Assembly: GCA_965365605.1 (NCBI GenBank)
Contig: CBDUCI010000002.1
Location: 1-35,770 of the forward strand
DNA: 35,770 nt
Source of the DNA: an uncultured bacterium
GTDB taxonomy: Bacteria; Gemmatimonadota; Gemmatimonadetes; JACCXV01; JAHWKZ01
Direction of reading: 5' to 3'
Numbering within the stretch: position 1 is the stretch's first letter; each line of letters starts with the position of its first letter. Below the pieces are notes generated by a model. That model was not told the origin of the DNA, made no database searches, and saw only the letters and a program-made list of their open reading frames with translations. Below are positions 14,159 through 35,047 of this stretch, piece after piece. A program made the position numbers and the translations under genes.

Positions 14159-14174
14159 TGGCACGCGAAGTGCA
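14159..14174 (+). promoter_or_regulatory. Candidate sigma-54 (-24/-12) promoter upstream of flp1
   Basis: TGGCACGcgaaGTGCA versus consensus TGGCACG-N4-TTGCW. GG and GC have exactly canonical spacing and there is only one mismatch. The -12 C is at 14173, predicting a start near 14185, about 40 nt before the flp1 ATG. Confidence 0.6.
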
Positions 14175-14453: not shown

Positions 14454-14499
14454 GTCGAAAACCCCACGTGGCCCTGAGTGGGCCGGGAGGAAACAACCG

Positions 14500-14682: not shown

Positions 14683-14705
14683 TCACTACGACTCTCCACC
14701 GAGGA

Positions 14706-14751
14706 GCCGGGGTCCGAAGCACGGGGGAACGGGCCCCGGCCTTCCTTGTTT
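14706..14751 (+). terminator. Hairpin plus T-rich tail between flp2 and cpaA (possible attenuator)
   Basis: GCCGGGGTCC ... GGGCCCCGGC (9 of 10 positions pair) followed by CTTCCTTGTTT. Confidence 0.45.
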
Positions 14752-14808
14752 AGAGAACCCAAGAACCCCCCGAGTCGGGCCCAGGCCGATGGCTCTATTA
14801 ATCAGGTC

Positions 14809-15770: not shown

Positions 15771-15828
15771 TAAACGCTCAATGAGTAGGACCGAGTAAAC
15801 CAGTAGTAGCTAGTAAACGAGGGACAGG
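15762..15828 (+). repeat. AT-rich, stop-codon-dense short direct repeats in the tadE-cpaB spacer
   Basis: AATGAGTAG occurs at 15762 and 15780. (T/G)AGTAAAC occurs three times, with GTAAAC at 15770, 15795 and 15823. TAA/TAG/TGA are present in all three frames. Confidence 0.6.
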
Positions 15829-15855
15829 CCTGCTACCAGGCACGGGAGGAAACCA

Positions 15856-16668: not shown

Positions 16669-16681
16669 GCGGAGGCCAATC

Positions 16682-18064
16682 ATGAGAGCCAAAACCCCCC
16701 AACTCATCAACCGCCGTTGGCACTTCTCGGCGCGCCTGCTCCCGCTCGTCGTCGGCATCGCTGTGTATGGCCTGACGCAGCCCGTCGCGGCAGCGGGACA
16801 GGCCGCCGGATCCCAAGAGGGTCGGACGGTCAACCTGGCCAAGGGTACCGCTCAGCTGGTTACCCACCCGGCCTCGATGCGTCGAGTGTCAGTGGCGAGC
16901 GCGGACGTCGCGGAAGCCGTCGTCGTGTCGCCAAACGAGCTGCTCATTCACGGGCGGGAGATCGGCACCACGAGCCTGGTGATCTGGGATTCCGAGGGCG
17001 GGCGTACGCTCTACCCGGTCGAGGTGACCCTCGATGCGGCCGCTCTGGAGACCCATTTCCGGGCCTTGTTCCCGAACGAGCAGATCGAAGTGCGGGCCAG
17101 TGGCAACACGTACATCCTGTCAGGAAACGTGACCAACTCGACGACTGCAGAGAGAGCGGTCGAGATCGCCGAGGCCACCGAGGCGATGGTGGTCAACAAT
17201 ATGTCGGTGCCCAGGCCGCACCAAATCCTGCTGCAGGTAAGGTTCGCCGAGGTGAGCCGGACCGCGATGCAGGAGCTGTCGGTAAACTTCTTGTTGCTCG
17301 ACCCGAACAACCCGCGGGGTGAAGATGAAGGTCTGATCTCGACGGGTCAGTTCAACCCGTTCAGCGAGAACTTCGTCAACTCGCGGCGCGGTCCAGAATC
17401 GGGGTTTTCCGACAAGATCAACCTGTTCTTGTTTCATGATAACGAGCGCTTCAGCGCGTTCATTCGCGCGCTGCAGAGCCGCGGTGACTTCAAGAGCCTA
17501 GCCGAGCCCAACCTGCTGGCGCTCGACGGCGTCGAGGCTTCCTTCCTGGCCGGGGGTGAGTTCCCGTTCCCTGTCTCACAGGGACAGTCCGACGCCATCA
17601 CGCTCATCTTCAAGGAGTTCGGGATTCGGCTGGTGTTCACACCCAAGGTGCAGAACAGCGGCAACATCAAGCTGAAGGTCGAGCCTGAGGTTTCGACGCT
17701 CGATTTCGCGAGCGGTTTGCAGGCGTTTGGCTTCCAGATCCCGACGATCCTGTCGCGGCGGGCGACGACCGAGGTCGAGCTCAAAGACGGGCAAACCTTC
17801 GCCATCGCCGGCCTGATCGACAACTCGATCGCCGAGAACCTGTCCAAGGTTCCGGTGTTGGGACATATCCCGATCTTGGGCAAGCTCTTCCAGTCGCAGG
17901 ACCTGCGGCAGAACCGGAGCGAGTTGCTCGTGTTGGTAACCCCGCGTCTGGTGCAGCCATCAGACGATCCACCGCCGATCCCAACCGGCGAGGTCGAGAG
18001 TTGGAAGTGGAAGAAGTCGCTGAAGAACGCCCCCGGTCAAACCGAAAGAGACGGAGGTGTCTAG
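16682..18064 (+). CDS. cpaC: Tad secretin CpaC/RcpA
   Basis: Signal peptide, then N-domain VSVASADVAEAVVVSPNELLIHGREIGTTSLVIWD. Secretin core LAEPNLLALDGVEASFLAGGEFPFP ... VPVLGHIPILGKLF ... ELLVLVTPRLV. The track ORF from 16499 overlaps cpaB, so ATG 16682 is preferred. Confidence 0.9.
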   Translation: MRAKTPQLINRRWHFSARLLPLVVGIAVYGLTQPVAAAGQAAGSQEGRTVNLAKGTAQLVTHPASMRRVSVASADVAEAVVVSPNELLIHGREIGTTSLVIWDSEGGRTLYPVEVTLDAAALETHFRALFPNEQIEVRASGNTYILSGNVTNSTTAERAVEIAEATEAMVVNNMSVPRPHQILLQVRFAEVSRTAMQELSVNFLLLDPNNPRGEDEGLISTGQFNPFSENFVNSRRGPESGFSDKINLFLFHDNERFSAFIRALQSRGDFKSLAEPNLLALDGVEASFLAGGEFPFPVSQGQSDAITLIFKEFGIRLVFTPKVQNSGNIKLKVEPEVSTLDFASGLQAFGFQIPTILSRRATTEVELKDGQTFAIAGLIDNSIAENLSKVPVLGHIPILGKLFQSQDLRQNRSELLVLVTPRLVQPSDDPPPIPTGEVESWKWKKSLKNAPGQTERDGGV

Positions 18065-18067
18065 CAC

Positions 18068-19219
18068 ATGATGCGCGCACTTTCGGGCCGAAAGACCAAC
18101 CCCCTGAGCAATGAACGCGGGACCTCCGTGATCCTGGTGGCGATCACCATGACCGCGCTCCTGTCGGTGGTCGCGCTAGCGGTCGACGTGGGCATGCTGC
18201 TCAACTCGAGGAGCGAAGCTCAGCGCGCCGCCGACTCGGCGGCACTAGCCGGTGCCGGCTCACTGATTGTCGCCCCAGACGACGAGCCCCGCGCGCGAAA
18301 CACCGCCATTCAGTTTGGGAGTCTGAACACGGTCCGAAAGACCGCGGTAACGGTCTTGCCCGAGGACGTTGACGTTGATCTTGCGCAAGGCCGCGTGACT
18401 GCGCGGGTGCGCCGGACAGGGGATCGCGGGAGCGCGGTGGCGACTTGGTTCGCCAACGTGTTTGGCGTCAGTGAGGTCGATATCGCCGCGACCGCTACGG
18501 CCCAGGTGCAACCAGCCGGCCGGGCGACATGTGTGAAGCCGTTTGCGATCCCGGATCAGTTTTTGGATATCGATGGCGACGGCGAGTTTGACAAGGGCGT
18601 CGACCAGTACGACCCGAACGTGCACGGCTACGGCGGCGATTGGCGCAACCCGGGTCATTCTGGTGACGACGGGCAAGGATACGTCAACGACTTCGGACGG
18701 CCAGTTGATCTCAAGCAGGGTGGTCCAACTTTTTTCCAGCCCGGCTGGTACTACCCGTGGAATGTGCCCAACGTCGATGATGCTCCCGACGTAGGTGCCG
18801 ACGAGTACCGGTGGAACATCAAAAACTGTAATCCTGCCATCATCTCGATCGGTGAACAGTACCAGATCGAGACCGGGGACATGGATGGCCCCACTCGGTT
18901 GGGTGTCACCGACCTCCTGGGTAAAGACTCGGGCGCATACTGGGACGACTTCACGAACTCCGTTGAAGGCAGCGCATGGGCTCCCAACTGGGAGGGTGGT
19001 CCGCGGGTCGGCATCATCCCGGTGTTCGATCCGTCACGCGATTTCAACCCCGGCAAGAAGCCGGTCGAGTTCACGAACTTTATCGCCGTCTTCTTCGAGG
19101 ATGTTGTGGGAGGCGGTTACAACCAGCAGGTCATTGCACGGATCATGTTTGCGTCGGGCATCGGTGGCGGCAGTGGCGGCACCGGTCCCGGACTCAAATT
19201 CGTGCAACTGGTCGAGTAA
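18068..19219 (+). CDS. tadG: TadG-like pilus assembly protein (no vWA domain)
   Basis: NERGTSVILVAITMTALLSVVALAVDVGMLLNSRSEAQRAADSAALAGA is a TadG-type N-terminus. It sits between the secretin and tadZ. Confidence 0.75.
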   Translation: MMRALSGRKTNPLSNERGTSVILVAITMTALLSVVALAVDVGMLLNSRSEAQRAADSAALAGAGSLIVAPDDEPRARNTAIQFGSLNTVRKTAVTVLPEDVDVDLAQGRVTARVRRTGDRGSAVATWFANVFGVSEVDIAATATAQVQPAGRATCVKPFAIPDQFLDIDGDGEFDKGVDQYDPNVHGYGGDWRNPGHSGDDGQGYVNDFGRPVDLKQGGPTFFQPGWYYPWNVPNVDDAPDVGADEYRWNIKNCNPAIISIGEQYQIETGDMDGPTRLGVTDLLGKDSGAYWDDFTNSVEGSAWAPNWEGGPRVGIIPVFDPSRDFNPGKKPVEFTNFIAVFFEDVVGGGYNQQVIARIMFASGIGGGSGGTGPGLKFVQLVE

Positions 19220-19235
19220 CCAAGCGAGGTACCCC

Positions 19236-20534
19236 GTGACCGATAACACCCCCATCAGCGGCGCCGTCATATCGACGGACCCCAAGTTCCGGGCCGTCCT
19301 TCACGGCAACGGCGATGGTGAAGCACAACCGGTCGAGGTGGCGTTTGAGATCATCGTCCCCTTCGCCGAAGTCAGCCACGGCCACCTCGAGGAGCTGAGA
19401 GTCGTCCAACCCTCGATCGTGTTCATCGATCTCGAGGACGACCCGATTCTCGGTTGCAAGCTGGCGCAGTTCCTGGTCGAGACGAACCCGGCGCTGCGGT
19501 TGGTCGCGGCCGGAACCGATGGATCACCGGAGTTCCTGATGACGGTGATGCAGGCCGGGATCAGTGAGTACCTACCCAAGCCGGTCACGGAGGACGCGCT
19601 GGTGGCGGCGATCGGCCGCGTGAGTCGAAAGCTCGGCGCCAAAGTGACCCAAAGCGCCGGCCCGGCTCGACGCGAGCCCGGTAAGTTGTTGGCTTTCTTT
19701 GGCACCAAGGGCGGGTCCGGTTCCACGACCGTTGCCACGAACCTGGCGATCCAGGTCCACCGCATGACCGGCAAGCGCACCGTGCTCGTCGACCTCGATC
19801 TCGAGCTCGGTGAGATCGCCCTTTATCTCGGTGTCGAGCCGCGGTTCAACTTCGTCGATCTGGCCAAGAACTTTCACCGCATGGATGCGGGGTTGCTGGC
19901 CTCGTTTATCGAGTGCCACGATTCCGGCGTACACCTGCTGTCCGCTCCGTATCATCCGGAGCGGGCGGAATCGGTGACCGCCGATCACGCCAAGCAGATT
20001 ATCCAGTTCTTGAAGCAACACTACGAGTACGTCTTCGTCGACGTGTCGAACTCATTCTCGGCGCGGACGTTGGCAGCTTTTGAAAAGGCCGACGAGGTGT
20101 ACTTGATCGCGACCGCCGACTTGCCGTCGTTGCGCAACATCCAGCGTTGCCAACATCTGATCGGTCGGTTGTCCAACATCGGTGAGCTGCGGTTGGTCGT
20201 CAACCGCTATCACCCCGACTGCGACATCACACTCGAGGATGTCGAGAAGTCGATCGGGATGGAGATCTATTGGGCCCTGCCGAACGATTATCAGTCGGTC
20301 ATCTACGCTATCAACACGGGTCAGCCGGTCATCCTCGATGACGCCAGCCCCTACACGCACGAGCTCGAGGCTTTGGCCGCCAAAATGACCGGCCTTCCTA
20401 GCGCCGGCTCGCATCGCAAGGGGTGGTTCTCCCGCAAGGTGGTGGATCCCTTGAAGAGTTTCCTTGGTTCGGAGGCCAATGAGGAAGAAGCCCTCATGCT
20501 GCCACCGGCCGTAGTCGGAGGTGAGCGCGCGTGA
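19236..20534 (+). CDS. cpaE: TadZ/CpaE: atypical receiver domain plus ParA/MinD-like ATPase
   Basis: Receiver-like N-domain (IVFIDLEDD...YLPKPV). Deviant Walker [22 protein letters not shown] 19236 is in frame with the track ORF 18795..20534, whose 5' part overlaps tadG and is rejected. Confidence 0.85.
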
Positions 20535-22030
20535 GCGATAACAAAGATCCGTACACGATCCCGCTGTTCTCGGAAGAGGGCGCGGTGAACAGGGAGAAAC
20601 TGCCTTGGGACAGCGCCGACGACGGTGGTGCCGAGGCAGGCGCTACAGCGACGGAACCCCTCGAACCGGTGAGGTTCGATCCGGACGAGTTCGATCCGGA
20701 GATGGCTTCGATATCGCCCGATGGCATACATCGGGGCGATGACACTACACACGAGATCAAGAGCCGGATTCACAAGCTGCTGCTCGAAAGGCTGAACCTC
20801 ACCAATCTGGATCAGTACGATCAGGATCAAGTAGTGGCCGAAATCCGGAAGGTCGTCCAGGGGTTGCTCGACCAGGAATCGGCACCGCTCAACTACGACG
20901 AGCGCGAGGCCTTGGTAGAGCAGGTCTTGCACGAGATTTTCGGTCTCGGACCGCTCGAGCCGTTGCTACAAGACCCGACGGTTTCCGATATCCTCGTCAA
21001 TACGTACGATGACGTTTTCATCGAGCGCGATGGAAAGCTCGAAAAGACGGACGTCCGGTTCAAGGACGATCGGCACTTGTTGCAGGTCATCGACCGGATC
21101 GTGTCTGCCGTGGGACGTCGAATCGACGATTCGAGTCCGATGGTTGATGCGCGACTTGCCGACGGATCGCGTGTAAACGCCGTCATTCCGCCGCTGGCGA
21201 TCGATGGGCCGCACGTTTCGATTCGTAAGTTTAAGAAGGATGCGTTGTCGGCAGAGGACCTGCTCCGGTACGACACGCTGACGCCTCAAATGCTGGAGCT
21301 CCTTCAGGGTATCGTCAAGGCGCGCCTCAACACGCTTATCTCGGGCGGTACCGGCTCGGGTAAGACGACGCTGCTCAACGTGCTGTCGGGCGCGATCCCG
21401 GTGACCGAGCGGATCGTGACGATCGAGGACTCGGCCGAGCTGCAGCTTCGTCAGCCGCACGTCGTGCGGTTGGAGACACGGCCACCCAACGTCGAGGGGT
21501 TGGGTGAGGTTCCGGCTCGTCAGCTGGTGATCAACGCGCTGCGTATGCGACCCGACCGCATCATCGTCGGTGAGGTTCGTGGCGCGGAGGCGGTCGACAT
21601 GCTGCAGGCGATGAACACCGGACACGATGGCTCGCTGACCACACTTCACGCGAACGCTCCGCGCGACGCGGTGAGCCGCCTAGAAACGATGATCGCGATG
21701 GCAAACCTGAATCTGCCCGACAAAGCGATGCGACAGCAGATCGCCAGCGCGATGGACGTGATCATCCAGGTCAACCGCATGGCGGACGGAACACGCCGAC
21801 TGATCTCGATCTCCGAGGTCGTCGGGATGGAAGGCGACGTGATCACCATGCAGGACATCTTTGTGTTCGAGCGTCAGGGAATCGATGAGAATGGCAAGGT
21901 CATCGGGCAGTTCAAGGCGACCGGGATTCGGCCGCGATTCGCCGAGCAGCTCAAGACCTGCGGCATCGACCTGCCGACCGCCATGTTCTCGAACCTCGAG
22001 TACGGCCTCTCGACCAACGAGGAAGCATGA
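20531..22030 (+). CDS. cpaF: Tad secretion ATPase CpaF/TadA
   Basis: Walker [14 protein letters not shown], Asp/His boxes ([12 protein letters not shown]; [12 protein letters not shown]; [12 protein letters not shown]). GTGA overlap with tadZ. Confidence 0.95.
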
Positions 22031-23022
22031 TGGATCGACTTCCGCCGAACGTGATGCTGGCGATCCTCGTGTTCGCAGCGGTGGCGTGTGCGGTCATCGT
22101 CCTCGCTGTGTTGTGGGAGTGGTGGGGTGACCGGAGGCGTCAGCGTGACCTGGCCCGGCGGCTGGGAAGCGTCGAACCCAGCGGGGAGGGTCAAGGCGGC
22201 GATCCGTTCGGTGATCTCTTTAAGGAGGCGACGAACGCGGATGTCAAGTGGCTGCAACCGGTCGTAGCCCGTGTGCCTCATACGCGAGACCTGCAACATC
22301 TGCTCGACCAGGCCGACATGCCGTGGCAGGTTGGGACTTTCCTGCTGACCACGATCGGTGCGGCGATGGCCTTTGGTACGATGGCGCTGCTGATCACGAA
22401 CAACACGATGGTAGCGATCGCAGCAGCGACGCTCGCGTCAACGTTGCCATACGTCTACATACGGCGTCGCAAGACGAAGCGATTACGGGCTTTCGAAGAG
22501 TGCTTCCCCGAGTCGATCGACCTGCTGGGGCGCGCGATTCGAGCCGGTCACGCCTTCTCGACGGGGCTCCAGATGGTGGCCGATGAATCCCCAGAACCGA
22601 TCGCCGGAGAGTTTCGTCGAGTCTTCGAGGAGCAAAAGTTTGGTTTGAGCATAGACGATTCGCTGCTCGCGCTGGCCGATCGGATAGAGCTCGTCGATAT
22701 GCGGATCTTTGTTACCGCCGTTCTTATCCAACGCGAGGTCGGTGGTAATCTGGCTGAGATCCTCGACAAGATCTCGTATACGATTCGTGAGCGGTTCACG
22801 ATCGAGCGGCAGGTCCGTGTGTACACCGCCCAAGGCCGCTTCACCGGATACCTGTTGGGTATCCTGCCGATCGCTGTTGGTTTCCTGATCTTCCTGTTGA
22901 ACGGCGAGTACATGACTGTGCTGTGGGAGAGGGACATCGGCCGTATGCTGATCTCCATTGCCGGCGTGCTCCAAGTCATCGGTTTCTTCGTAATCCGGAA
23001 AATCATCAACATCGAAGTGTAG
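22027..23022 (+). CDS. tadB: TadB (T2SS-F family inner-membrane platform protein)
   Basis: T2SSF-type repeat ([28 protein letters not shown]...) with flanking TM segments. ATGA overlap with cpaF. Confidence 0.9.
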
Positions 23023-23032
23023 GTAGAGAGCG

Positions 23033-23974
23033 ATGCTGTTATACCTCGTCGTCGGCCTAATCATGTTCTCCGTCATCGCGCTCGTGTGGGGCTTGGCTTC
23101 AATGGCCCCAGCACGGTCGCGCTCTATCTCGCGACGTCTGAGCGAGCTCCAGGCTGGAGGCGGCGATCGGTTCGCGATTCAACACGCCATGCAGCGTCGT
23201 CGTCGCCAGGAAAAGCGGGAGAAGATGCAGGGCATCCTCGAATCGTTTGGCGAGCGGGTCGCCCGCCGTGAGATCGATTGGGGGAAAACGCAAACGATGC
23301 TGATTCAGGCCGGCTACCGTGGTTCCGGGACGTTGCCGATCTACTTTGGTGTCCGGATCGTCGCCGCAATGACTCTCGCGGCCGGGGCCCTTTTCACAGG
23401 GACCGTCTCGGGCGCCGGACCGAGTACGATGATCGCCGTTGGTGTAGCCGGGCTCATCGGTTGGGTTATCCCGTCGATGACCGTGAAGCGGAAGATTCGT
23501 AAGCGGCAGAAGAGCATTCAGCTGGCGTTAGCCGATACGCTCGACCTACTGGTCGTCTGCGTGGAGGCCGGTCTCGGCTTGAACCAGGCGCTGCTCAGAG
23601 TGTCGGACGAGATCGAATACGTGAGTAAGATCATGAGCGAAGAGTTAATGGTGCTCAACTTCGAGATTCGGGCCGGTACACCGCGCGACGAGGCGATGCG
23701 GAATCTCGGTGAGCGGACTGGCGTCCCCGACCTCAAATCGTTGACCGCTATGCTCATCCAAACGGATCGCTTTGGGACCTCGATCGCCAAGGCGTTGCGC
23801 GTCCACTCGGACACGCTGCGCATCAAGCGTCGGCAACGGGCCGAGGAGGCCGCGGCCAAGACGACGATCAAGCTCGTCTTCCCACTCGTGTTGTTCATCT
23901 TCCCGGCGATGTTCGTGGTGATTCTCGGTCCGGCGATCATTCACATCACCGAACAGATGAAGGGACTGATGTGA
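23033..23974 (+). CDS. tadC: TadC (T2SS-F family inner-membrane platform protein)
   Basis: LADTLDLLVVCVEAGLGLNQALLRVSDE... T2SSF block, TM segments at both ends. Follows tadB. Confidence 0.9.
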   Translation: MLLYLVVGLIMFSVIALVWGLASMAPARSRSISRRLSELQAGGGDRFAIQHAMQRRRRQEKREKMQGILESFGERVARREIDWGKTQTMLIQAGYRGSGTLPIYFGVRIVAAMTLAAGALFTGTVSGAGPSTMIAVGVAGLIGWVIPSMTVKRKIRKRQKSIQLALADTLDLLVVCVEAGLGLNQALLRVSDEIEYVSKIMSEELMVLNFEIRAGTPRDEAMRNLGERTGVPDLKSLTAMLIQTDRFGTSIAKALRVHSDTLRIKRRQRAEEAAAKTTIKLVFPLVLFIFPAMFVVILGPAIIHITEQMKGLM

Positions 23975-24336
23975 AGATGTTGCGCGTCGTTAATGCGACC
24001 CGTGACCGCGAGTTGGGCAATCGCGTCTGGCTGGCGAACCGGTGGTGGCCGCGTCTTCGCGGACTATTGGGCCGGGGGCCATTGCAGCCGGGCTCGGGCA
24101 TGGTTCTGGAACCCTGCAAAGCGGTTCACATGTTCGGGATGAAGTACTCGCTCGACGTGGTGTTCGTGAACGCAGAGGGAGAAGTGGTCGCGATGTACCC
24201 CAAGCTGGACCCTGGTAAGCGGACGCCCTGGCATAAGCCGGCGCGAAAGGCGATCGAGCTGCCCGTCGGTACGCTGGCTGCGACCGGGACCGAGGTCGGT
24301 GACGTTCTGACTTGTCAATTTGCGGAGGCCGTCTGA
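23971..24336 (+). CDS. DUF192-family protein
   Basis: RLRGLLGRGPLQPGSGMVLEPCKAVHMFGMKYSLDVVFVNAEGEVVAM...AIELPVGTLAATGTEVGDVL fits the DUF192 (COG1430) pattern from memory. 4-nt overlap with the tadC stop. Confidence 0.7.
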   Translation: MKMLRVVNATRDRELGNRVWLANRWWPRLRGLLGRGPLQPGSGMVLEPCKAVHMFGMKYSLDVVFVNAEGEVVAMYPKLDPGKRTPWHKPARKAIELPVGTLAATGTEVGDVLTCQFAEAV

Positions 24337-25910
24337 TGAACGCTGGATTCGGAGTCAAAACCGCCGCTCCCAAGGCGGGATCACGCAAACCGCCGATTCC
24401 TGAGTCGATCGAAGAGACCGGCCTGCTCGACGAGGCGATCAGCGACCTGATAATCAAGACGCTCTACACCAAGGGCGCTCTCACCGGACAGGAGCTGAGT
24501 GAAGCCGTGTGCTTGCCGTTCCGGTTGCTCGACGATCTCTACCACGATCTGCAACATCGCCAGTTTCTTGAGGTTCGCGGAACCCAAGGCCACGGCCGTG
24601 GCGGCTACGTGTACGACCTCACCGGTCAGGGACGAGATCGGGCACGCGAGGCGATGATTTCGAATCAGTACGTTGGACCGGCTCCGGTACCGATCGACGT
24701 GTATCGAACCTGGGTCGAGGCTCAGACGATTCGCAAGGTGCATATCACCGTCGATCGGATCCAATCGGGTTTTGGTCACCTGGTACTGGACCCGGCATTT
24801 ATCGAACACCTCGGTCCAGCGATCAACTCGGCGAAATCGATGTTCCTCTACGGTGACTCCGGCAACGGCAAGACCAACATGGCGGAGTCGATCGCCCGGA
24901 TGTTGGGTGGTGACATGTACGTTCCCTACGCGGTGGACATCGAGGGGCAGATCATGATTACCCACGATCCGGTGTACCATCGGCCAAAAGCGGACGAAGC
25001 GGTGACCGTGTCCGTCGACGGTGAGGAGTCGACCCTACTAGAGTCGGCGCCCACGTACGATCGACGGTTCGCCCGCGTCGCGCGTCCGGTGGTGTTCACT
25101 GGTGGCGAGCTCACGCTGGAGCAACTCGATCTGCAGTACGATCCGACGGCCAAGGTGTACCAGGCACCGTTCCAGGTAAAGGCCAACGGTGGGGTGCTCA
25201 TTATCGATGACTTCGGCCGGCAGCAAGTACGACCGCGTGATCTGCTCAACCGATGGATCGTCCCGCTTGAGAAGCGGATCGATTTTATGACGTTGCACAC
25301 CGGCCACAAGTTCCCGGTGCCGTTCGATTGCCTGCTCATTTTCGCAACGAACCTGAATCCGTTGGATCTCGTGGATGAGGCTTTCCTGCGTCGGATTCAC
25401 TACAAGATTCATGTGCCGAGCCCGGACTACGAGCAGTTCGTTCAGATTTTCCGGCGGGTCTGCGTTTCGAGACAGATACCGTTTGTGGCGGGTCGCGTTG
25501 CGTACATTTACCGCCAGTACTACGAGCCGAACGGTATCTCACCTCGATCGTGTCACCCACGGGATATCGTCGATCACTTGTGCGATTCGGCCCGATATCT
25601 GGGGACCAAGCCGGAGTTGACGGTTGATCTGCTCGACCACGCATGCAAGTCGTACTTCCTCGACATGCCGGATGAAGATTACGTCGTCGATCCGTTAGAG
25701 TTTATGGGGGATCAGCGGGCCCACGCGGCCGCAGCTATGGCGATGACGGTGACCCATGGCGGTTCGGGACACGGGGAAGAAACGCCCCCGGCCGAGTCGG
25801 TCGAAGCCGGTGGTGTGGACGAGGTGCCAGCAACCGAGGGCGAGCCGGTGGTGGCAACCGAGGACGAGCGAGCACCCGGGCAGCCGCCCGGTAGCGCACC
25901 CGCGCCATGA
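24336..25910 (+). CDS. AAA+ ATPase of unassigned subfamily, with an N-terminal ~170-aa domain and an acidic/Pro-rich tail
   Basis: Walker A LYGDSGNGKTNMAE, Walker B GGVLIIDDFGRQ, sensor-1 LLIFATNLNP, DEAFLRRIHYKIHVPSPD. The ATG overlaps the DUF192 TGA (TGATG). Confidence 0.8.
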   Translation: MNAGFGVKTAAPKAGSRKPPIPESIEETGLLDEAISDLIIKTLYTKGALTGQELSEAVCLPFRLLDDLYHDLQHRQFLEVRGTQGHGRGGYVYDLTGQGRDRAREAMISNQYVGPAPVPIDVYRTWVEAQTIRKVHITVDRIQSGFGHLVLDPAFIEHLGPAINSAKSMFLYGDSGNGKTNMAESIARMLGGDMYVPYAVDIEGQIMITHDPVYHRPKADEAVTVSVDGEESTLLESAPTYDRRFARVARPVVFTGGELTLEQLDLQYDPTAKVYQAPFQVKANGGVLIIDDFGRQQVRPRDLLNRWIVPLEKRIDFMTLHTGHKFPVPFDCLLIFATNLNPLDLVDEAFLRRIHYKIHVPSPDYEQFVQIFRRVCVSRQIPFVAGRVAYIYRQYYEPNGISPRSCHPRDIVDHLCDSARYLGTKPELTVDLLDHACKSYFLDMPDEDYVVDPLEFMGDQRAHAAAAMAMTVTHGGSGHGEETPPAESVEAGGVDEVPATEGEPVVATEDERAPGQPPGSAPAP

Positions 25911-26635
25911 ACGACCGCAAACCCCGGATCTCGGATCGACGGGGCGAGTACGACGAGGTGACCTATCGCGAGGCGCTACGGTCGCTCGGTCTGTTCGCTC
26001 CGGTGATGCTCAATGACATCCATCGCGCCTATCGATCGCGCGCCAAGCAGATCCATCCCGATCGGTTTGCGGCTAACGGTGGTTACGATGAGGCCACCCA
26101 CCGCATCCAGAAGCTAAACGCTGCCCATGACTACGTGATCCACTTCTACGCGAAGTTCGAGAAGTCACAGGGCCGCATCGCTCGCCATCACATGCCACCG
26201 GGACAAGCCGGTTCAATGAACCCGTTGTTCGAGATGCTCTTGCTCCCGATCGCGGCCGTCTACTCGCTAACGACGGTATTGGCGGCGGTACCGGCAGCGC
26301 TGCTCGACCGCTTTAGCTTCGAGGACGACGAGGACGATCCGGTCAAAGAGAACGCAACCGATGTGAACGTGAGTGGTGGGGACGCCAAGGAGCAGCGAGA
26401 CATGACGCCGTCTCGCGAGGGGTGGCTCGTCGTCGGGCCGCACGTGATGGCGCTCGTCTTGTTCATGCTCGTGGAAGCATCAGGGATCGCTTCACCACTC
26501 TTCAAGTGGTGGGTAGGGCTTTCGCTTTTGATCATGTTATCGACCGACATCGCCAGCCGTGTCACGGGCGAGGAGAATCCTCTGCGGGATCACCGCGCGT
26601 TTGGCCGCGTGGACGCTTTCGTCCGCGGCCTCTAG
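25907..26635 (+). CDS. Membrane-anchored J-domain (DnaJ-like) protein
   Basis: J-domain YREALRSLGL...IHRAYRSRAKQIHPDRF...IQKLNAAHDYV with an HPD tripeptide. Three hydrophobic segments (LLLPIAAVYSLTTVLAAVPAALL; VVGPHVMALVLFMLV; WWVGLSLLIMLS). ATGA overlap with the AAA+ gene. Confidence 0.75.
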   Translation: MNDRKPRISDRRGEYDEVTYREALRSLGLFAPVMLNDIHRAYRSRAKQIHPDRFAANGGYDEATHRIQKLNAAHDYVIHFYAKFEKSQGRIARHHMPPGQAGSMNPLFEMLLLPIAAVYSLTTVLAAVPAALLDRFSFEDDEDDPVKENATDVNVSGGDAKEQRDMTPSREGWLVVGPHVMALVLFMLVEASGIASPLFKWWVGLSLLIMLSTDIASRVTGEENPLRDHRAFGRVDAFVRGL

Positions 26636-26692
26636 CCACTCCTCCAGCATCATCCGGTGGGCGGCGCCCGCCGGCGCCGATCCGGATACGCA

Positions 26693-26719
26693 ACCCGACC
26701 TCGAGTCGGGTGTTTTTTT
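26693..26719 (+). terminator. Strong intrinsic terminator closing the tad-DUF192-AAA-J transcription unit
   Basis: ACCCGAC-ctcga-GTCGGGT perfect 7-bp stem followed by G-TTTTTTT, 58 nt after the J-domain gene stop. Confidence 0.8.
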
Positions 26720-26773
26720 GTTCGGGGGAAGCGAAAGGCGACCTCTGAGCGTCCCACTATATTGGATAATTCG

Positions 26774-27658
26774 ATGTCGATGCTCGAAGATGACTCGTCG
26801 CGCTTTGCGTTGCTCTTTTCGGTGCTTCTGCACGCGCTACTGGTAGCCCCGGTCTGGGGATGGTTGGTGAGCGTCAAGCCGGTAGCGGCCGGAGCCGATG
26901 CGCCGCCGATGCAGTTCACGTTTGTGGAGGCCCGGGACGCACCGGAAGAGCCGCCCGACGCACCCACCCCGCTCCTCTCGACGCGGGACCAGCGAGCCGC
27001 GCAGGAGAGCGCCCCCTCAGAGCTGCCAGAGGGTTCGGCGTTCCAGTTGGGCCAAACGCCATTGCCGGTCGCCCCGCGGGCGCCGGGGTCAGTGGCTAAC
27101 GCGGCGCCGACGGTTCCGCAGCCACCATCGAGCAACAACCGCGCGTCGGGCACTGAGTCGGTCGAGCGGCCGGCCGGAGAGGGCCCGATGACCCCCAGCG
27201 GCGACGCTCGGCTGGCGGTTCGTGAAAAGCCGATCGGACTGGCTACTGGTCGTTCGTCGAACCCCGGAAGCGGCGCCAGACTTCCGGCCCCAGAGGTCGA
27301 TCAGCGACTCACACGGGCTCGCGCGGGCAGCACGTTTAGCCTGAACACCACCGCTTGGGAGTATGGACCTTACATGGCGCGCCTCAAAGCGCAGATCGAG
27401 GAGCACATCTTCCCACCGCCGGCGTTCTACTACGGCACCGCCGCGTGGGCGACACGGGTGCGATTCCGGATCGCACCTGACGGCCGGCTCATGTCACTCG
27501 AGCTACTCGATCACCGTGGCGTCCCCAATCTTCAGTACGTGGCGACATCGTCGATCGAAGCGGCCGCCGATTATGAGCCGCTGCCGCCGGGTTTCCCCGA
27601 ACCGCTGCTGGAGATCACCGGGAACTTCTACTTCAACGTGGCTCCACCGGGCCGTTAG
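26774..27658 (+). CDS. tonB: TonB-family energy transducer
   Basis: N-terminal anchor FALLFSVLLHALLVAPVWGWLV, a Pro-rich spacer (PEEPPDAPTP...PLPVAPRAP...PQPPSS), and a C-terminal TonB-like domain (WATRVRFRIAPDGRLMSLELLDHRGVPNLQYVATSSIEAAADYEPLPPGFP). The start must lie after the terminator at 26693-26719, so ATG 26774 (or 26780). Confidence 0.75.
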   Translation: MSMLEDDSSRFALLFSVLLHALLVAPVWGWLVSVKPVAAGADAPPMQFTFVEARDAPEEPPDAPTPLLSTRDQRAAQESAPSELPEGSAFQLGQTPLPVAPRAPGSVANAAPTVPQPPSSNNRASGTESVERPAGEGPMTPSGDARLAVREKPIGLATGRSSNPGSGARLPAPEVDQRLTRARAGSTFSLNTTAWEYGPYMARLKAQIEEHIFPPPAFYYGTAAWATRVRFRIAPDGRLMSLELLDHRGVPNLQYVATSSIEAAADYEPLPPGFPEPLLEITGNFYFNVAPPGR

Positions 27659-28305: not shown

Positions 28306-28714
28306 GCCCGGTCGTCGCCGCAAGACGCTGATCAACGTCACCTCGCTGATCGACGTCGTCTTCCTGTTGCTCATCTTCTTTGTCGTTACGTCCACCTTTC
28401 TCGAGCAGCCCGGGCTCGATCTAACACTACCCGAGGCCGGATCGGCGGAGATGACCGTGCGCGAACAGGTCACGCTCGGTGTCGACGCCGACGGTGAGAT
28501 CTTTCTGAATGGCGATCCGGTCGTGCTAGAGGGATTGGCGGACCGAATCGAGCAGGCGCTCGAACGAGCGGAAACCGAACGCGTGTTGCTCGAGGCGGAC
28601 TCGCGCGTTTCGCACGGTCGTGTCGTGGCGCTGATGGACGCCGCCCGGCGGGCCGGCGCCGGGGCGCTGCTGGTAGCGACGCGTCCCCCCGAAGAAGCCG
28701 CCCGAGAACCGTGA
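28295..28714 (+). CDS. exbD: ExbD/TolR-family protein
   Basis: INVTSLIDVVFLLLIFFVVTSTF (conserved Asp in the TM helix) plus a periplasmic domain. Overlaps the exbB end by 11 nt. Confidence 0.9.
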   Translation: MHLEPGRRRKTLINVTSLIDVVFLLLIFFVVTSTFLEQPGLDLTLPEAGSAEMTVREQVTLGVDADGEIFLNGDPVVLEGLADRIEQALERAETERVLLEADSRVSHGRVVALMDAARRAGAGALLVATRPPEEAAREP

Positions 28715-31700
28715 GCCAACCGGCGCGAACCTTCGTCGCGGCGGCGGTGTTGGGGGGCGTCTTGTTTATCACATCACCAGGGCCGCTGGCGGTCGGACTG
28801 CTGATCGCTGCTTTGGTCGCGTTGGTGGTCGGCCTCGCCCGACGTTGGCCCCGGCGATGGGGATTACGCATCGCCCACCTGCTGTTGTTCGCGTATCTCG
28901 CGGCATGGGCCTACACGCACCTCGATGATTGGCGTCTGGCTCGCGGTGGCGCGGCGACTTCGACGCGGTTGGAGACGGCCAAGCTTGAGCGGGTGGCTGC
29001 GGTTCTTGGCGGGCGGCTCCAGACTGATCGCGCGCTGGCGGTTCGCGTTGCCGGTGCATTGGCGGCCGAGAGCGCGACCGGCGGACGCGACATGGTGCAG
29101 GACCCAGAGCTTTTCGTGTCGTTGGGTCGCGCGGTTCCGCCACTGCTACCGACCGGCGTCGGGATCGAGGTGTACGACGCAGCCGGCAGCTTGCGCGCAT
29201 GGTGGGGTGAGCCACGAGGTGGCCGGCTGCCGGCCGATTCGGTGACGGCGCCACTGACCGGTGGCGTAGTGCGTCGGCCAGCTGGGTACACGTTGGCTTA
29301 CGCCGCCGTTCCCTGGAGCGTCGAGTCGGACAGTTTCGTTGTCGCGGTAAAGGACCTCTGGGCGGTCGAAACCCCGTTGCGGCGAGGTGTCGGCGAGACC
29401 GATTTGATGCTGACGACGCTGGAACGAGGCGAGGACCTCGCTTTTCGTGTTCTGACGCTCGGTGACGAACCCGAGCAACGCTCCCCATCGGCAGCCATTC
29501 GAGGGTCGGATGGAGAAGCGGTGGCGTCAGTCGTGAGCGAACGGTTCCTGCTCCGGCGCTATCTGGCCGAACGGAGACGCGAGGCGCAGCGGATGCTGGC
29601 TGGTCTCTATATGTGGCCGCTTTTGTGGGCGACAGGCGCGATCTGGCAGCTGGCGCGTCGCCGTCGCGAGGGTGCGAGCTTGACGCGCTGGGCGATCGGT
29701 CTCACCGGACAGACGATCGTCTTGATCGGGCTTTGGGGGTTCGTGATCGAGTCCCGTTTCGCGGCGCGGTTGTTGCCTGAAACGTGGTTTAGCCCACTGA
29801 CGTTTGCAACCGATTCCTTGGGACCCGGCGGCCGCTCGCCTGGGGATTTGATGTTCACATCCGCGATCGTGTTCTTGATCGTGTTGTCGGCCTACACCCT
29901 TATTCCAGAATCGCGAAGACGGCTGTCTGCAGTGTTTGTGGTGCCCGTGGTGGTCGGAGCTGCAGCGTTGGTACTCCAGGTCATGCCAGCTATCGCGACG
30001 ATCGTCGAACGCGCGCTGCAGAACATGAGCCCAACCGTCTTCTTTAGCTCGACGCTCCTATTTTCGCCGCCATATCTGCTGGTGTTGTTGAGCTTCGCAT
30101 TGTTGAGCGCGGCGGCGATCGGAGCGCTGGCGATAGTCTTCCGGTGGCTCAACATGCCGACCGGCAAAGGATGGGTGCTGGGTGCGGCGACGGTAACTGC
30201 GGCGATGCTCGCTCTAGCGGCTTTCAATCTCCAGAGTGCCGCCATGGCGGGCCGATTCTCGGCGATCGGGCCGTTGCTTGGCCTCGGTGCGGTTGGTGCG
30301 GCTGCGCTGATCGACGCTGCCGGGCGCCGGCGGGACGACTTGCAACCCGCTTCCAGTGTTCGTTTCTCACTCGTGGCGGTGGGGCTAGCGTGCTTGCTCA
30401 CGTTCCCGATCATGACATTCGCGCGGGTCCAAGCGGCGCACGAGCTACTGGTGGAGCGAGCCGAGCGGATCGGCGAAGCCTCGACCCAGTGGCTTCAGTA
30501 CACGATGACGCGGACGATCGAGTATTTGGCGACTTCTCCGGAGGTCAAGCGTGCGATTCAGGATTCGAATCGCGACGCCGCGTTGCTGCTGTGGAACCAG
30601 AGCCCGCTTCGGACGCTCGACTTTGCATCCGGCCTGTACCTGTTTGATGCGGATGGTTCGACGGTTAGTCAGTTCGCGCTGTCGGCTGTCGACTTGTCCG
30701 GTCGCGCTCGGCGCTACGCGCGGGAAACATCGGTTCCAAGAGTCGAGATCGAAGGCGCGCCGCGCGACCGTGGCATCTGGTGGGCGATCGTTCCGGTGAA
30801 CGAAGTCGTCGACGAGGTCGAGCAGCGCGTTGGCGCGGCGGTCGCGATGACGACTGGAGCGCTCGAGCTCAGAGAGCCGGCGACCGGATCGGCGTTTGTC
30901 CTCACGGACCTCTTGGCTGGTTCCGGGCCACCGGCCAACGCGCCTCAGATTTCCGCGCTGGGTTCCGATGACGTGCCACCGCCGGGGACGTTGCTGACGA
31001 CTGTCGTCCGCGAGGGTGAAGAGCCGGTCCAGCTCGCGATGCCGCTCGAACCGCTGTTGCCCACCGCACGCTCCTACGCGGTATTTGGTTTCGTCGGGGT
31101 TATCTTCGGAATGTTGTTGGGGTTGATCGAACGTTGGGGAGACGTGCGTACCCGAGGTCGATGGTGGGCCAGTCTCAGGGCCGAGAATCCGTTGCACTCC
31201 TTTCGCCTGCAACTGCTGTTGGCGTTTCTCGCGGTGGCGGCCGTGCCGCTCACGTTGTACGCGGTGCTTGGCTATCGCGCGACACGCATAGAACTGCAAG
31301 AGGCGACTCGTGGCGCGGCGGCCGAAGCGCTTGCCGCCGCCAGCCGCATGGTCGTTGATGACCCCGCGCTCGAACGCGGAACGCCGCGTCTCTTGACCGA
31401 CCGTTTGCGAGACATCGCCGAGGTTCTGCAGCAGGACTTGGTTCTCTATTGGCGCGGTCGAACGGTGGCGTCCAGTCGACCCGAGATTTTCGCCTCAAGA
31501 CTGTTTGCCGATCGCATGCCAGGGGAAGTGTACGCGGACTTGTTCGCCGTTCGCCGACCGCTGGCCTTTGATTCGATGGTGCTCGGCGAGCGATCGTTTC
31601 TGGTTGCTTACCAACCGCTGGTTGAACCCGAAGCGCCGGCGGGCTACGTGCTCGCGACACCGTTGTTGATCCGCGAAGACCGCGCTCGTGCCGACTTGCA

Positions 31701-33015
31701 GCGATTGGGCGAGGGCGTGTTCCTGCTGTCGGCGTTCTCGCTGGGGTTTCTGTTGATCGTGAGTGGTGGGCTCTCGAGATACATGGCGCGCCCGCTATCA
31801 GCGCTCGAGCGTGGTACTCGACAAATCGCCGCCGGAAGGCTCTCATACCGTCTTCCGTCACCCGCTCGACGCGACGAGTTCGGACGCCTACAGGGAGCGT
31901 TCAACGCGATGGCCGAACAGCTCGACGTCGGTCAGCGAGCGCTCGAGCGAGAGAAGTCCAGGGTCCAGGCGATTCTGGCTTCGGTCGGTGCCGGCGTGGT
32001 AGCGCTCGACGAGCGGGGCAAGATCCGGCTGCTCAACGATCGGGCGGCTAGCCTGCTAGGCCTCGACCCGCGTGATGTCGTTGATCGCCCGGTGCGCGAA
32101 CTCGTTGATGACGACGGCGAAGCGAGCTCGTTCTGGCGCGCGGTTGGGATAGAGTTCGACCGTGGGGGAGGAGACGATCACGACCTGGTGGTTCGCCGAA
32201 ACGGCGAAGAGCGGCATTACCACATGGTGGGAACGGCGTTGCGCGATGCCGTCGGACGAGAGCGGGGATTGGTGGTGGCGTTCGAGGATATCACTGCCAA
32301 CGTGCAGTCGCAGCGCGTTCTGGCGTGGGGTGAGATGGCCCGACAAGTCGCGCACGAGATCAAGAACCCACTTACGCCGATGAAGCTTTCCTTGCAACAC
32401 CTCGAGCGGACGGTCGAAGATCGCCCGGACGATTTCCATCAAGTGTTTCACTCCAACCTCGACTTGATCTTGGCCGAGGTCGAACGATTGGAGCGAATCG
32501 CCAGCAACTTCGCTCGCTTCGCGGTGCCCGATCCGGCCGTCAGTGAACCGTTTGATGCCGAATCCATCGCCCGGGAAGTGGTGGCGCTGTTCGAGCCCGG
32601 CGAAGACAACGTGGTGTACTCGCTCGACGTGGTCGGACAGCCACGGGATCTGCGCGGTGACCCCGAAGGGTTCCGCCGCATTCTGGTCAACCTGCTGCAG
32701 AACAGTCGCGAAGCGGTGCTGGCTGCAGACGGTGGGAGCGTGAGCCTGCGACTCGATTGGAAACGCGAATCGGGGTGGGCACGAGTCTCGGTCGTCGACG
32801 ATGGGGTCGGCCTGCCCCCAGACGGGATCGATCGGCTGTTCGAGCCCTCGTTTTCGACCAAAACGCGCGGTACCGGGCTCGGTTTGGCGATCACGCGCCG
32901 GATCGTCGAGGCGTGGGGCGGGACGATCGAGTACGAGCGCCGCTCCGAAGGAGGCACCGCGATCCACGTTCGTCTGCCATCCGCCTCGATCGAGGACGAC
33001 GTCACAACGCCGTAG
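28711..33015 (+). CDS. Very large polytopic sensor histidine kinase (multi-TM sensor regions, then HAMP-PAS-HisKA-HATPase; NtrY-like H-box)
   Basis: At least a dozen hydrophobic segments and two to three large loops in the first ~1000 aa. HAMP (RPLSALERGTRQIAAGRLSYRLP...FGRLQGAFNAMAEQL), PAS (VQAILASVGAGVVALDERGKIRLLNDRAASLLGL), H-box MARQVAHEIKNPLTPMKLSLQHL, N/G boxes (LVNLLQNSREA; DDGVGLP; GTGLGLAI). GTGA overlap with the exbD stop. Confidence 0.9.
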   Translation: MSQPARTFVAAAVLGGVLFITSPGPLAVGLLIAALVALVVGLARRWPRRWGLRIAHLLLFAYLAAWAYTHLDDWRLARGGAATSTRLETAKLERVAAVLGGRLQTDRALAVRVAGALAAESATGGRDMVQDPELFVSLGRAVPPLLPTGVGIEVYDAAGSLRAWWGEPRGGRLPADSVTAPLTGGVVRRPAGYTLAYAAVPWSVESDSFVVAVKDLWAVETPLRRGVGETDLMLTTLERGEDLAFRVLTLGDEPEQRSPSAAIRGSDGEAVASVVSERFLLRRYLAERRREAQRMLAGLYMWPLLWATGAIWQLARRRREGASLTRWAIGLTGQTIVLIGLWGFVIESRFAARLLPETWFSPLTFATDSLGPGGRSPGDLMFTSAIVFLIVLSAYTLIPESRRRLSAVFVVPVVVGAAALVLQVMPAIATIVERALQNMSPTVFFSSTLLFSPPYLLVLLSFALLSAAAIGALAIVFRWLNMPTGKGWVLGAATVTAAMLALAAFNLQSAAMAGRFSAIGPLLGLGAVGAAALIDAAGRRRDDLQPASSVRFSLVAVGLACLLTFPIMTFARVQAAHELLVERAERIGEASTQWLQYTMTRTIEYLATSPEVKRAIQDSNRDAALLLWNQSPLRTLDFASGLYLFDADGSTVSQFALSAVDLSGRARRYARETSVPRVEIEGAPRDRGIWWAIVPVNEVVDEVEQRVGAAVAMTTGALELREPATGSAFVLTDLLAGSGPPANAPQISALGSDDVPPPGTLLTTVVREGEEPVQLAMPLEPLLPTARSYAVFGFVGVIFGMLLGLIERWGDVRTRGRWWASLRAENPLHSFRLQLLLAFLAVAAVPLTLYAVLGYRATRIELQEATRGAAAEALAAASRMVVDDPALERGTPRLLTDRLRDIAEVLQQDLVLYWRGRTVASSRPEIFASRLFADRMPGEVYADLFAVRRPLAFDSMVLGERSFLVAYQPLVEPEAPAGYVLATPLLIREDRARADLQRLGEGVFLLSAFSLGFLLIVSGGLSRYMARPLSALERGTRQIAAGRLSYRLPSPARRDEFGRLQGAFNAMAEQLDVGQRALEREKSRVQAILASVGAGVVALDERGKIRLLNDRAASLLGLDPRDVVDRPVRELVDDDGEASSFWRAVGIEFDRGGGDDHDLVVRRNGEERHYHMVGTALRDAVGRERGLVVAFEDITANVQSQRVLAWGEMARQVAHEIKNPLTPMKLSLQHLERTVEDRPDDFHQVFHSNLDLILAEVERLERIASNFARFAVPDPAVSEPFDAESIAREVVALFEPGEDNVVYSLDVVGQPRDLRGDPEGFRRILVNLLQNSREAVLAADGGSVSLRLDWKRESGWARVSVVDDGVGLPPDGIDRLFEPSFSTKTRGTGLGLAITRRIVEAWGGTIEYERRSEGGTAIHVRLPSASIEDDVTTP

Positions 33016-35023: not shown

Positions 35024-35047
35024 TTGAGCAACGCACGGGGGGTGCTC

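Follow-up and report, generated by a model that had tools for sequence, protein, structure and literature searches.

In many bacteria, Tad pili serve in adhesion, in the formation of biofilms, in the colonisation of hosts and in contact-dependent killing, and the parts list of the machine that builds them is regarded as essentially complete. The canonical Tad/Flp system (type IVc; cpa in Caulobacter) is encoded by flp, tadV, rcpCAB and tadZABCDEFG. The DNA analysed here, called the window below, is a stretch of 35,770 nucleotides from an uncultured member of the Gemmatimonadota (GenBank assembly GCA_965365605.1, contig CBDUCI010000002.1, positions 1 to 35,770 of the forward strand). As in the canonical system, the core tad genes are held in one operon. 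Unlike it, the window carries three extra, apparently coupled genes after tadC, which encode a DUF192 protein, an AAA+ ATPase and a membrane protein with a putative J domain. None of the three appears in the published Tad component lists that were compared, as the initial annotation of this DNA had stated for the canonical gene set. The AAA+ and DUF192 proteins are probably overlooked helper parts of the pilus machine, because both accompany tad genes in several distant phyla. On balance, we lean towards the reading that the three genes form an accessory module acting at the cytoplasmic face of the Tad machine, in ATP-driven assembly or remodelling.

The GspA/GspB (ExeA/ExeB) pair of type II secretion likewise joins an ATPase and a membrane partner as accessories of a type IV filament machine, and partners with a SPOR domain occur in one clade of the loci described below. 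The two systems are not homologous, however, and the AAA+ protein of the window appears soluble, whereas GspA is membrane-anchored and combines a periplasmic peptidoglycan-binding domain with an AAA_22-type ATPase. ClpV of type VI and EccA of type VII secretion offer a functional analogy only: each is a soluble AAA+ ring encoded in the locus of its machine, the components of which it remodels or recycles, but both belong to other AAA+ clades with another architecture, and the window protein has neither a Clp_N nor TPR domains. The MoxR/chelatase ATPases (NorQ-NorD, BchI-BchD, RavA-ViaA) are accessory ATPases encoded with the complex that they serve, as the AAA+ protein of the window would be. 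They share with the model of the window protein the fold class, the beta inserts before Walker B and the hairpin before sensor-1 (Foldseek E about 1e-7 to 1e-8), but its N-terminal winged helix is not a MoxR feature.

Recurrence of the AAA+ and DUF192 genes beside tad loci

According to Pfam matches, positions 14401-26635 of the plus strand form a single tightly packed tad (Flp pilus) operon, and the components of a complete Tad locus (Flp, TadV, CpaF/TadA, two T2SSF proteins, TadZ, RcpC/CpaB and secretin) all exceed the Pfam gathering scores within 14401-23974. Open reading frame (ORF) starts are the longest possible, and the true starts of some probably lie further downstream. The GTG of the DUF192 gene at 23971 overlaps the TGA of tadC (23972-23974; an alternative ATG lies at 23977), the DUF192 stop and the AAA+ start share TGATG (24334-24338), and the AAA+ stop and the start of the J-protein gene share ATGA (25907-25910). 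The intrinsic terminator that follows consists of the hairpin ACCCGAC-CTCGA-GTCGGGT (26693-26711) and a T7 run; it is the strongest in a 15-kb scan and the sole strong terminator-like site there. Its hairpin and T-run are kept in seven related loci, in which the spacer in front has diverged. Within the module, the sequence scan found no credible internal promoter or terminator; the promoter scan gave two sites against 3.3 expected, and one 9/12 promoter-like match lies inside the AAA+ gene. Judged from these signals, tadC and the DUF192, AAA+ and J-protein genes are translationally coupled and form the co-transcribed 3' end of the tad operon. The initial annotation had claimed the overlaps at 23971, 24334-24338 and 25907, the best terminator at 26693-26719 and the position of the trio at the operon's 3' end, and its account holds on each of these points.

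The uncharacterised AAA+ family is large: one search gave more than 8,000 clusters at 90% identity, and at 50% identity 1,377 clusters (E <=1e-30) were counted. Gene order around its members was taken from tblastn matches, profile hidden Markov model (HMM) matches and database-called genes; a home-made greedy ORF caller was not used for this because it produced spurious antisense ORFs in GC-rich loci. Close relatives of the AAA+ protein (85-98% amino-acid identity) are all found in Gemmatimonadota metagenome-assembled genomes (MAGs) and keep the gene order of the window, which is seen in L001-L007 and L017. Gemmatimonadota at 58-77% identity (L023-L031) have, in all loci examined, the arrangement flp ... 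tadB-tadC-DUF192-AAA+-third gene, usually with 4-nt overlaps. The upstream core tad gene order is common to the related Gemmatimonadota loci, and the downstream flanks are unrelated among L023-L031; therefore, the module is taken to end after the third gene.

Outside this phylum, a tblastn search of plasmids and chromids returned 76 records at 33-40% identity, with the N-terminal domain included in the match. In 8 of 8 proteobacterial replicons inspected, which come from Alpha-, Beta- and Gammaproteobacteria, the AAA+ gene adjoins or sits inside a tad locus. Its position varies: in Rhizobium etli, R. bangladeshense and Sinorhizobium fredii NGR234 it comes directly after tadC, in Pseudorhodobacter 2 kb behind tadC, and in Burkholderia pyrrocinia, Paraburkholderia terrae and Photobacterium it is placed between tadV and cpaB; in Salipiger it stands alone, convergent with tadC. 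Chromosomal homologues are present in B. pseudomallei, B. thailandensis and many other Burkholderiaceae, where they are annotated just as 'ATPase' or 'ATP-binding protein'. The Rhizobium and Salipiger tad loci with the AAA+ gene (L032, L034, L036) also have an L,D-transpeptidase gene between tadZ and cpaF. A scan of metagenomes yielded 80 AAA+ loci at 43-61% identity, with tad genes beside the AAA+ gene in 26; another 28, in which the upstream flank spans 1.5 kb or more, show no tad gene, and the remaining loci do not extend far enough for a call. The tad-linked loci among them show both orders, tadC-DUF192-AAA+ and tadC-AAA+-DUF192. In a rough neighbour-joining tree, the tad-linked proteins occupy several deep branches, being found on the proteobacterial ones, in the Gemmatimonadota clade and in a second large clade, and the unlinked ones fall mainly into one clade, which includes Anaerolineae/Chloroflexi MAGs. 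The linkage of the AAA+ gene to tad is thus recurrent, ancient-looking and independent of position, and it extends over at least four phylum- or class-level groups. In the unlinked clade, a gene for a glycerophosphodiester phosphodiesterase (GDPD) usually lies immediately downstream on the same strand (L009-L022 and about 28 metagenome loci; e.g. L011:9950-12086), and in the Anaerolineae loci of this kind the AAA+ gene is preceded by one for a 2,000-aa alpha-2-macroglobulin.

The DUF192 gene has a distribution of its own. A database search gave short DUF192 proteins at 41-60% identity to that of the window, and among the distant homologues (41-50% identity) all five readable contexts place the gene directly after a T2SSF gene of the tadC platform type. 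In Desulfitobacterium metallireducens it follows the T2SSF gene in a complete monoderm-type tad operon without the AAA+ gene; the same position is found in a Chloroflexi MAG and in a Firmicute-like contig, and one distant locus reads tadC-DUF192-AAA+. An HMM built from the Gemmatimonadota DUF192 proteins found the gene in all Gemmatimonadota loci and in 20 tad-linked metagenome loci, before or after the AAA+ gene. Across phyla, DUF192 thus follows tadC, and it neighbours the AAA+ gene where the two occur together. A DUF192 gene of unknown role has been reported at the 3' end of the tad operons of the Firmicutes Bulleidia and Helcococcus (PMC12786226, 2025); this was the one paper on DUF192 in tad operons found in the literature, and it gives no function. 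A tblastn search of plasmids with DUF192 gave one match only, from Alkaliphilus, and the tad loci of proteobacterial plasmids are therefore taken to lack this DUF192 subtype. On that clostridial plasmid (L040:10912-12225) a prepilin peptidase gene precedes the DUF192 gene by 4 nt, and the 24 kb shown contain no complete tad operon. In a Myxococcota MAG (L123:8081-14029), T2SSF-DUF192 is followed by three FHA proteins, one of them FHA+TPR, in a Kil-like arrangement; the published component tables of the M. xanthus Kil system list neither DUF192 nor an AAA+ protein of this type.

The initial annotation had presented the trio as a candidate new accessory module whose synteny with tad genes should recur. 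The synteny was recovered for the AAA+ gene (8/8 proteobacterial replicons, all Gemmatimonadota loci, 26/80 metagenome loci) and for DUF192 (5/5 distant contexts), and not for the J-domain protein, which is limited to the sub-lineage of the window and two relatives; moreover, the AAA+ and DUF192 genes each occur without the other. The trio itself is not the conserved unit, since the third gene differs by lineage. In the literature on DUF192/COG1430/UPF0127, on AAA+ proteins with Tad and on the Burkholderia and Sinorhizobium tad loci, no description of an AAA+-tad link was found. What is new here is thus an undescribed, widely distributed accessory module on a known machine, the function of which we infer.

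Motifs and predicted structure of the three proteins

Membership of the 524-aa protein in the AAA+ superfamily is supported by its motifs and by its predicted fold. Across 60 homologues, G173, G176, G178 and K179 of Walker A, D291 and D292 of Walker B, N339 of sensor-1 and the arginines R352/R353 are invariant, and Walker B ends in Asp-Asp instead of the usual Asp-Glu. The motifs that had been called intact in the initial annotation (Walker A/B, sensor-1 and the FLRR arginines) are thus upheld, with the DD form of Walker B added. An AlphaFold2 (AF2) model calculated from a 60-sequence alignment that included Burkholderiales reached pLDDT 88.9 and pTM 0.84; a first model from 34 Gemmatimonadota-only sequences, with pLDDT 52.6, was discarded. 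The roughly 170 N-terminal residues, formerly described as unassigned, are modelled as a winged-helix domain (helices 32-46, 51-58, 62-74 and 97-109, strands 78-83 and 91-95; pLDDT >90) and a helical linker (120-165). Then come the AAA+ core (166-360), in which beta inserts separate Walker A from Walker B and a hairpin (315-329) precedes sensor-1, and a helical lid (365-441). The helix at the DNA-contact position of the winged helix is acidic and hydrophobic, PFRLLDDLYHDL, with LDD conserved. The acidic/Pro-rich tail noted earlier is indeed present; it is poorly conserved, modelled with pLDDT <50 and absent or different in homologues of 431-500 aa, and is probably disordered. The hydrophobicity scan found neither a transmembrane (TM) segment nor a signal peptide in the AAA+ protein.

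The top Foldseek match is the hexameric Pyrococcus furiosus protein Q8U0N8 (PDB 8p49; E 1e-12), and further matches include the LonB ATPase module, RuvB, BchI, NorQ and ComM, with probability 1.0 to many AAA+ structures. Protein 8p49 and the archaeal LonB module (4zpx, 3k1j) provide the best folds (E 1e-12 to 2e-11, target-length-normalised TM-score 0.6); identity is, however, just 14-18%, the window protein lacks a protease domain and a membrane insertion, and Q8U0N8 is itself uncharacterised. In 8p49 a flexible N-terminal domain is attached to a hexameric ring, and the window protein probably forms a similar ring. The model thus assigns it to a fold class with a winged-helix N-domain and a LonB/RuvB/chelatase-like core.

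At the sequence level, Pfam and NCBIfam gave only sub-threshold, P-loop-level AAA matches for the window protein and the 60 family members, and PDB searches with the single sequence and with the family profile detected no solved structure related at that level; matches to Vps4, midasin and spastin concern only the P-loop and the second region of homology (SRH) and are uninformative for the clade. Several class assignments were tried and rejected. The classic AAA clade (Vps4, FtsH, p97) scores 20.4 against 21.2 bits with PF00004, through the P-loop only, and the protein is not considered of the Vps4 type despite its SRH-like stretch, because the fold search and the inserts and hairpin of the model argue against it. 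MoxR/chelatase profiles also remain below threshold over the 60 members (Mg_chelatase best E 6e-4, AAA_5 best E 8e-5, recurrent weak bpMoxR). Membership in that group is not supported, as PF07726, PF07728 and PF01078 are sub-threshold and no VWA partner gene adjoins the AAA+ gene; the VWA-bearing TadG-like proteins are exported pseudopilins encoded 18 kb away. The sigma-54 activator (bacterial enhancer-binding protein, bEBP) profile PF00158 gives 19.6 against 20.2 bits, with the loop VVFTGGELT in place of GAFTGA and no HTH_8. For GspA/ExeA there are sub-threshold AAA_22 matches only, with no TM segment and no peptidoglycan-binding domain, and for a PilT/PilU-type retraction ATPase there is no PF00437 match. 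A PADLOC search for anti-phage defence returned only IetA matches of P-loop length (<=37 bits), and nothing for the DUF192 or J protein.

Some AAA+ members carry N-terminal FHA domains or, in one case, an HDOD domain (P0417, P0419, P0436), as one would expect of a regulated ATPase associated with a machine; the fusions to FHA are reminiscent of the Kil (Tad-like) system of Myxococcus, which is rich in FHA. In ten members with long N-terminal extensions, apart from P0085 (see below), no DUF192 was found, the extensions containing FHA, HDOD or nothing instead. The DUF192 protein of the window matches PF02643 (COG1430) at 61.5 bits against a cut-off of 27, over profile positions 2-95 of 96. Since the hydrophobicity scan revealed neither a signal peptide nor a hydrophobic or TM segment, it is predicted to be cytoplasmic, unlike the many annotated DUF192 proteins that are exported.

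The third protein of the window has a putative N-terminal J domain (about residues 18-80), predicted to be cytoplasmic, then an acidic linker and C-terminal membrane segments. It had been described as a DjlA-like protein with an HPD tripeptide and three hydrophobic segments. The HPD stands, being kept in four orthologues at 36-86% identity, and one of the orthologues, that of L025, has a precomputed DnaJ match (E <=1e-5); of the segments, two are clear in a Kyte-Doolittle scan (110-128 and 174-192) and the third, near 197-215, is weaker. The likeness to DjlA was not sustained, as the window protein reaches 17.4 bits with that model (NF006948; cut-off 162). In DjlA the TM segment is N-terminal and the J domain C-terminal, and the window protein shows the reverse order, as DjlB/DjlC do; no other similarity was found. 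What would be common to the window protein and to DjlA, DjlB and DjlC of E. coli is an HPD J domain tethered to the inner membrane and expected to stimulate Hsp70 locally.

The J-domain protein is restricted to the sub-lineage of the window (L001-L006), with L025 and L029/L030 in addition. Its place is taken in other Gemmatimonadota by a 200-230-aa protein that has one TM segment together with periplasmic repeats, in Rhizobium by one of 189 aa that combines a single TM segment with a coiled coil, and in other lineages by a polytopic protein with a long coiled coil in the cytoplasm. The gene after AAA+/DUF192 in the second tad-linked clade encodes a bitopic SPOR-domain (peptidoglycan-binding) protein (L076:9635-10987, L052:11721-13166, L054:8348-9850, L069:2849-3940); in L069, a gene for an AAA_22 (GspA-type) ATPase follows the AAA+ gene. 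By predicted topology, these products share an architecture and not homology, each being a small membrane-anchored protein with a cytoplasmic N-terminus. Downstream of the module, the window encodes a 1,434-aa HAMP-PAS-HisKA-HATPase sensor kinase (28711-33015), which may belong with the J-type variant because a homologous kinase follows the J-type loci L003, L006, L025 and L029.

Proposed role and competing explanations

In the reading that we prefer, the membrane partner, together with DUF192 where present, would bring the AAA+ ring to the TadB/TadC/CpaF platform. ATP-driven remodelling at the platform could then assist the assembly, quality control or recycling of a Tad component (platform proteins, prepilin or CpaF), and the AAA+ protein would be to the Tad machine what a dedicated AAA+ protein is to another secretion machine. 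DUF192 probably partners the platform and, where both are present, the AAA+ protein. The third-gene product would be a lineage-specific membrane anchor, and in the lineage of the window the HPD J domain of this anchor may recruit and activate DnaK at the inner membrane. What the analysis shows is the coupling of the genes, the fold class, the conserved catalytic motifs, the synteny across phyla and the predicted topology, with DUF192 and the AAA+ protein in the cytoplasm; the oligomeric state, partners, substrate and direction of action of the AAA+ module are those that we infer.

Several observations weigh against this reading. The Chloroflexi-type AAA+ clade (the 28 informative metagenome loci and L008-L022) has no tad gene within 10 kb; the AAA+ family is therefore not Tad-specific, and its conserved winged helix cannot be an adaptor for Tad only. 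Searched with the Gemmatimonadota DUF192 HMM, the proteobacterial AAA+ loci are without DUF192, and several phyla carry DUF192 without the AAA+ gene; as the two occur apart, they may act independently. An apparent DUF192-AAA+ fusion ORF of 635 aa (P0085, L023:10001-11908) is doubtful as Rosetta-stone evidence: at the usual AAA+ start the junction has an ATG with GAGGTGA, which resembles a ribosome-binding site, and it further contains a G5 homopolymer and a read-through linker of low complexity, so that the fusion may be an assembly frameshift. The J protein matches Pfam DnaJ (PF00226) with E 1.3e-5 and 25.6 bits, just below the gathering score of 27.8. Moreover, a DD Walker B in other AAA+ groups accompanies slow, switch-like hydrolysis.

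The last point belongs also to a different explanation, in which the AAA+ protein would be a regulatory switch, a winged-helix DNA-binding or signal-integrating ATPase that controls the neighbouring operon (tad or GDPD), with DUF192 and the membrane protein as modulators or passengers. The MarR/ArsR-type fold of the N-domain, the occurrence of the DD Walker B in some switch-type AAA+ proteins, the solitary gene convergent to tadC in Salipiger, the second conserved context beside GDPD, the weak Sigma54_activat matches and the FHA or HDOD signalling domains of some members are consistent with it. We nevertheless consider it unlikely. The helix at the recognition position, PFRLLDDLYHDL, with its conserved LDD, is acidic and hydrophobic, which would be unlike a DNA-reading helix; the GAFTGA loop and a C-terminal helix-turn-helix are lacking, and Sigma54_activat stays below its cut-off. 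Conservation, at 45-60% identity across phyla, is high for a transcription factor, the gene is usually embedded in a structural operon with a membrane partner next to it, and a regulator of the bEBP type is already encoded in the window, directly upstream of flp. Improbable as well, in our judgement, is a trans-envelope factor of the GspA/GspB kind, the analogy drawn in the initial annotation, in which the ATPase would act through a bitopic partner to remodel peptidoglycan or to aid secretin/RcpC assembly. Partners with a periplasmic SPOR domain in one tad-linked clade lend it some indirect support, and the periplasmic repeats of the partner in other Gemmatimonadota, the L,D-transpeptidase in Rhizobium and Salipiger tad loci carrying the AAA+ gene and the AAA_22 (GspA-type) ATPase beside it in one locus also speak for it. 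However, homology to GspA/ExeA is lacking (AAA_22 sub-threshold, no TM segment, no peptidoglycan-binding domain), the partner encoded in the window is nearly devoid of a periplasmic part and carries a cytoplasmic J domain, and DUF192 occurs without the AAA+ gene in monoderm Firmicute tad loci that have no secretin.

Two further explanations carry far less weight. That the AAA+ protein is a dedicated retraction or disassembly motor in place of the missing PilT would agree with an extra ATPase being encoded in the locus and with the lack of a PilT-type ATPase in Tad systems, as given in one paper (PMC12019362). The same paper reports, however, that CpaF is bifunctional and drives both extension and retraction; besides, the AAA+ fold is unrelated to the platform-acting PilT/VirB11 (T2SSE) ATPases, most tad loci, model ones included, are without this gene, and part of the family is not tad-linked, so such a motor is very improbable. 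We find it equally hard to credit that the genes are passengers without a functional link, carried beside tad loci on mobile islands or plasmids. Many proteobacterial AAA+ matches do lie on plasmids or chromids, and tad loci are mobile 'widespread colonisation islands' (Tomich et al. 2007). Against this, the linkage recurs in distant phyla with differing gene orders and flanks, start and stop codons overlap those of tadC, and in Burkholderia the AAA+ gene is inserted between tadV and cpaB.

If the preferred reading of an accessory module at the platform is true, a second, unrelated ATPase and a small protein following tadC would mean that a sizeable Tad subclass needs extra cytoplasmic factors. 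An AAA+ family without a Pfam model, comprising about 1,400 clusters at 50% identity, would also gain its first functional context, as would DUF192 (PF02643), unknown since the early COG era. A bolder version is put forward tentatively, as one that we would sooner expect to fail than to hold: the winged-helix AAA+ protein, DUF192 and a swappable anchor would be an unrecognised ATP-driven assembly or recycling subsystem of a widespread Tad subclass (including that of the Burkholderia pseudomallei group and of rhizobia), comparable to ClpV for type VI secretion, with DUF192 as a universal cytoplasmic factor binding TadC or the platform. The hypothesis is directly testable, because tractable hosts carry the AAA+ gene in tad loci, namely Burkholderia thailandensis, B. 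cenocepacia, Rhizobium etli CFN42 (RHE_RS25680, followed by RHE_RS25685) and Sinorhizobium fredii NGR234.

Gene layout and neighbouring features of the window

The genes of the operon, the terminator and the motifs and domains of the encoded proteins are listed in Table 1.

Table 1. Positions in the window of the tad operon genes, the terminator and the protein features discussed in the text (residue numbers refer to the encoded protein).
Feature	Position	Strand	Basis or remark
flp	14401-14682	+	Pfam
tadV	14746-15318	+	Pfam
tadE	15306-15770	+	Pfam
rcpC/cpaB	15856-16668	+	Pfam
secretin	16499-18064	+	Pfam
tadG-like	18068-19219	+	Pfam
tadZ/cpaE	18795-20534	+	Pfam
cpaF	20531-22030	+	Pfam; sole PF00437 (T2SSE) match
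tadB	22027-23022	+	Pfam
tadC	23033-23974	+	Pfam T2SSF, 71 bits
DUF192 gene, 121 aa	23971-24336	+	PF02643
AAA+ ATPase gene, 524 aa	24336-25910	+	Sequence motifs, AF2, Foldseek
Predicted winged-helix N-terminal domain, residues 25-109	24408-24662	+	AF2; weak SufR and MarR_2 matches
Walker A GDSGNGKT, residues 173-180	24852-24875	+	Read from sequence
Walker B VLIIDD, residues 287-292	25194-25211	+	Read from sequence
Sensor-1 FATN (336-339) and arginine pair FLRR (350-353)	25344-25397	+	Stretch aligns with Vps4
Acidic/Pro-rich C-terminal tail, about residues 445-524	25668-25907	+	Variable, poorly conserved
Membrane J-domain protein gene, 242 aa	25907-26635	+	Pfam DnaJ, HPD, TM scan
HPD tripeptide, codons CAT CCC GAT, residues 50-52	26054-26062	+	Read from sequence
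Intrinsic terminator	26693-26719	+	Terminator scan; hairpin and T-run

Directly after the terminator lies a conserved intergenic element, GCGTCCCACTATATTGGAT (26740-26775), which hardly differs among seven relatives and is a possible promoter for the gene that follows. At the other end of the operon, a receiver-less sigma-54-type activator with a partial Sigma54_activat domain, AAA_lid_14 and HTH_8 is encoded just upstream of flp (12941-13927). It is followed by the perfect palindrome TGCAACCGCGGTTGCA (13951-13966) and by the -24/-12-like element TGGCACGCGAAGTGCA (14159-14174), some 240 nt ahead of flp; as far as these elements indicate, the tad operon may depend on sigma-54.

The window also holds two TadG-like proteins with an N-terminal Tad/pseudopilin domain and a VWA domain (2787-3968 and 5255-6472), encoded 10-20 kb upstream of the operon, which are possible pilus-tip adhesins. 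A second tad locus begins at the end of the window with tadV2 (34508-35023) and tadE2 (35024-35506), and it continues in L003 and L006 with an RcpC paralogue of about 60% identity. Between the VWA-TadG genes and the tad operon, a tripartite exporter composed of an ABC ATPase, an HlyD-type adaptor and an outer-membrane efflux protein is encoded on the minus strand (6547-9877).

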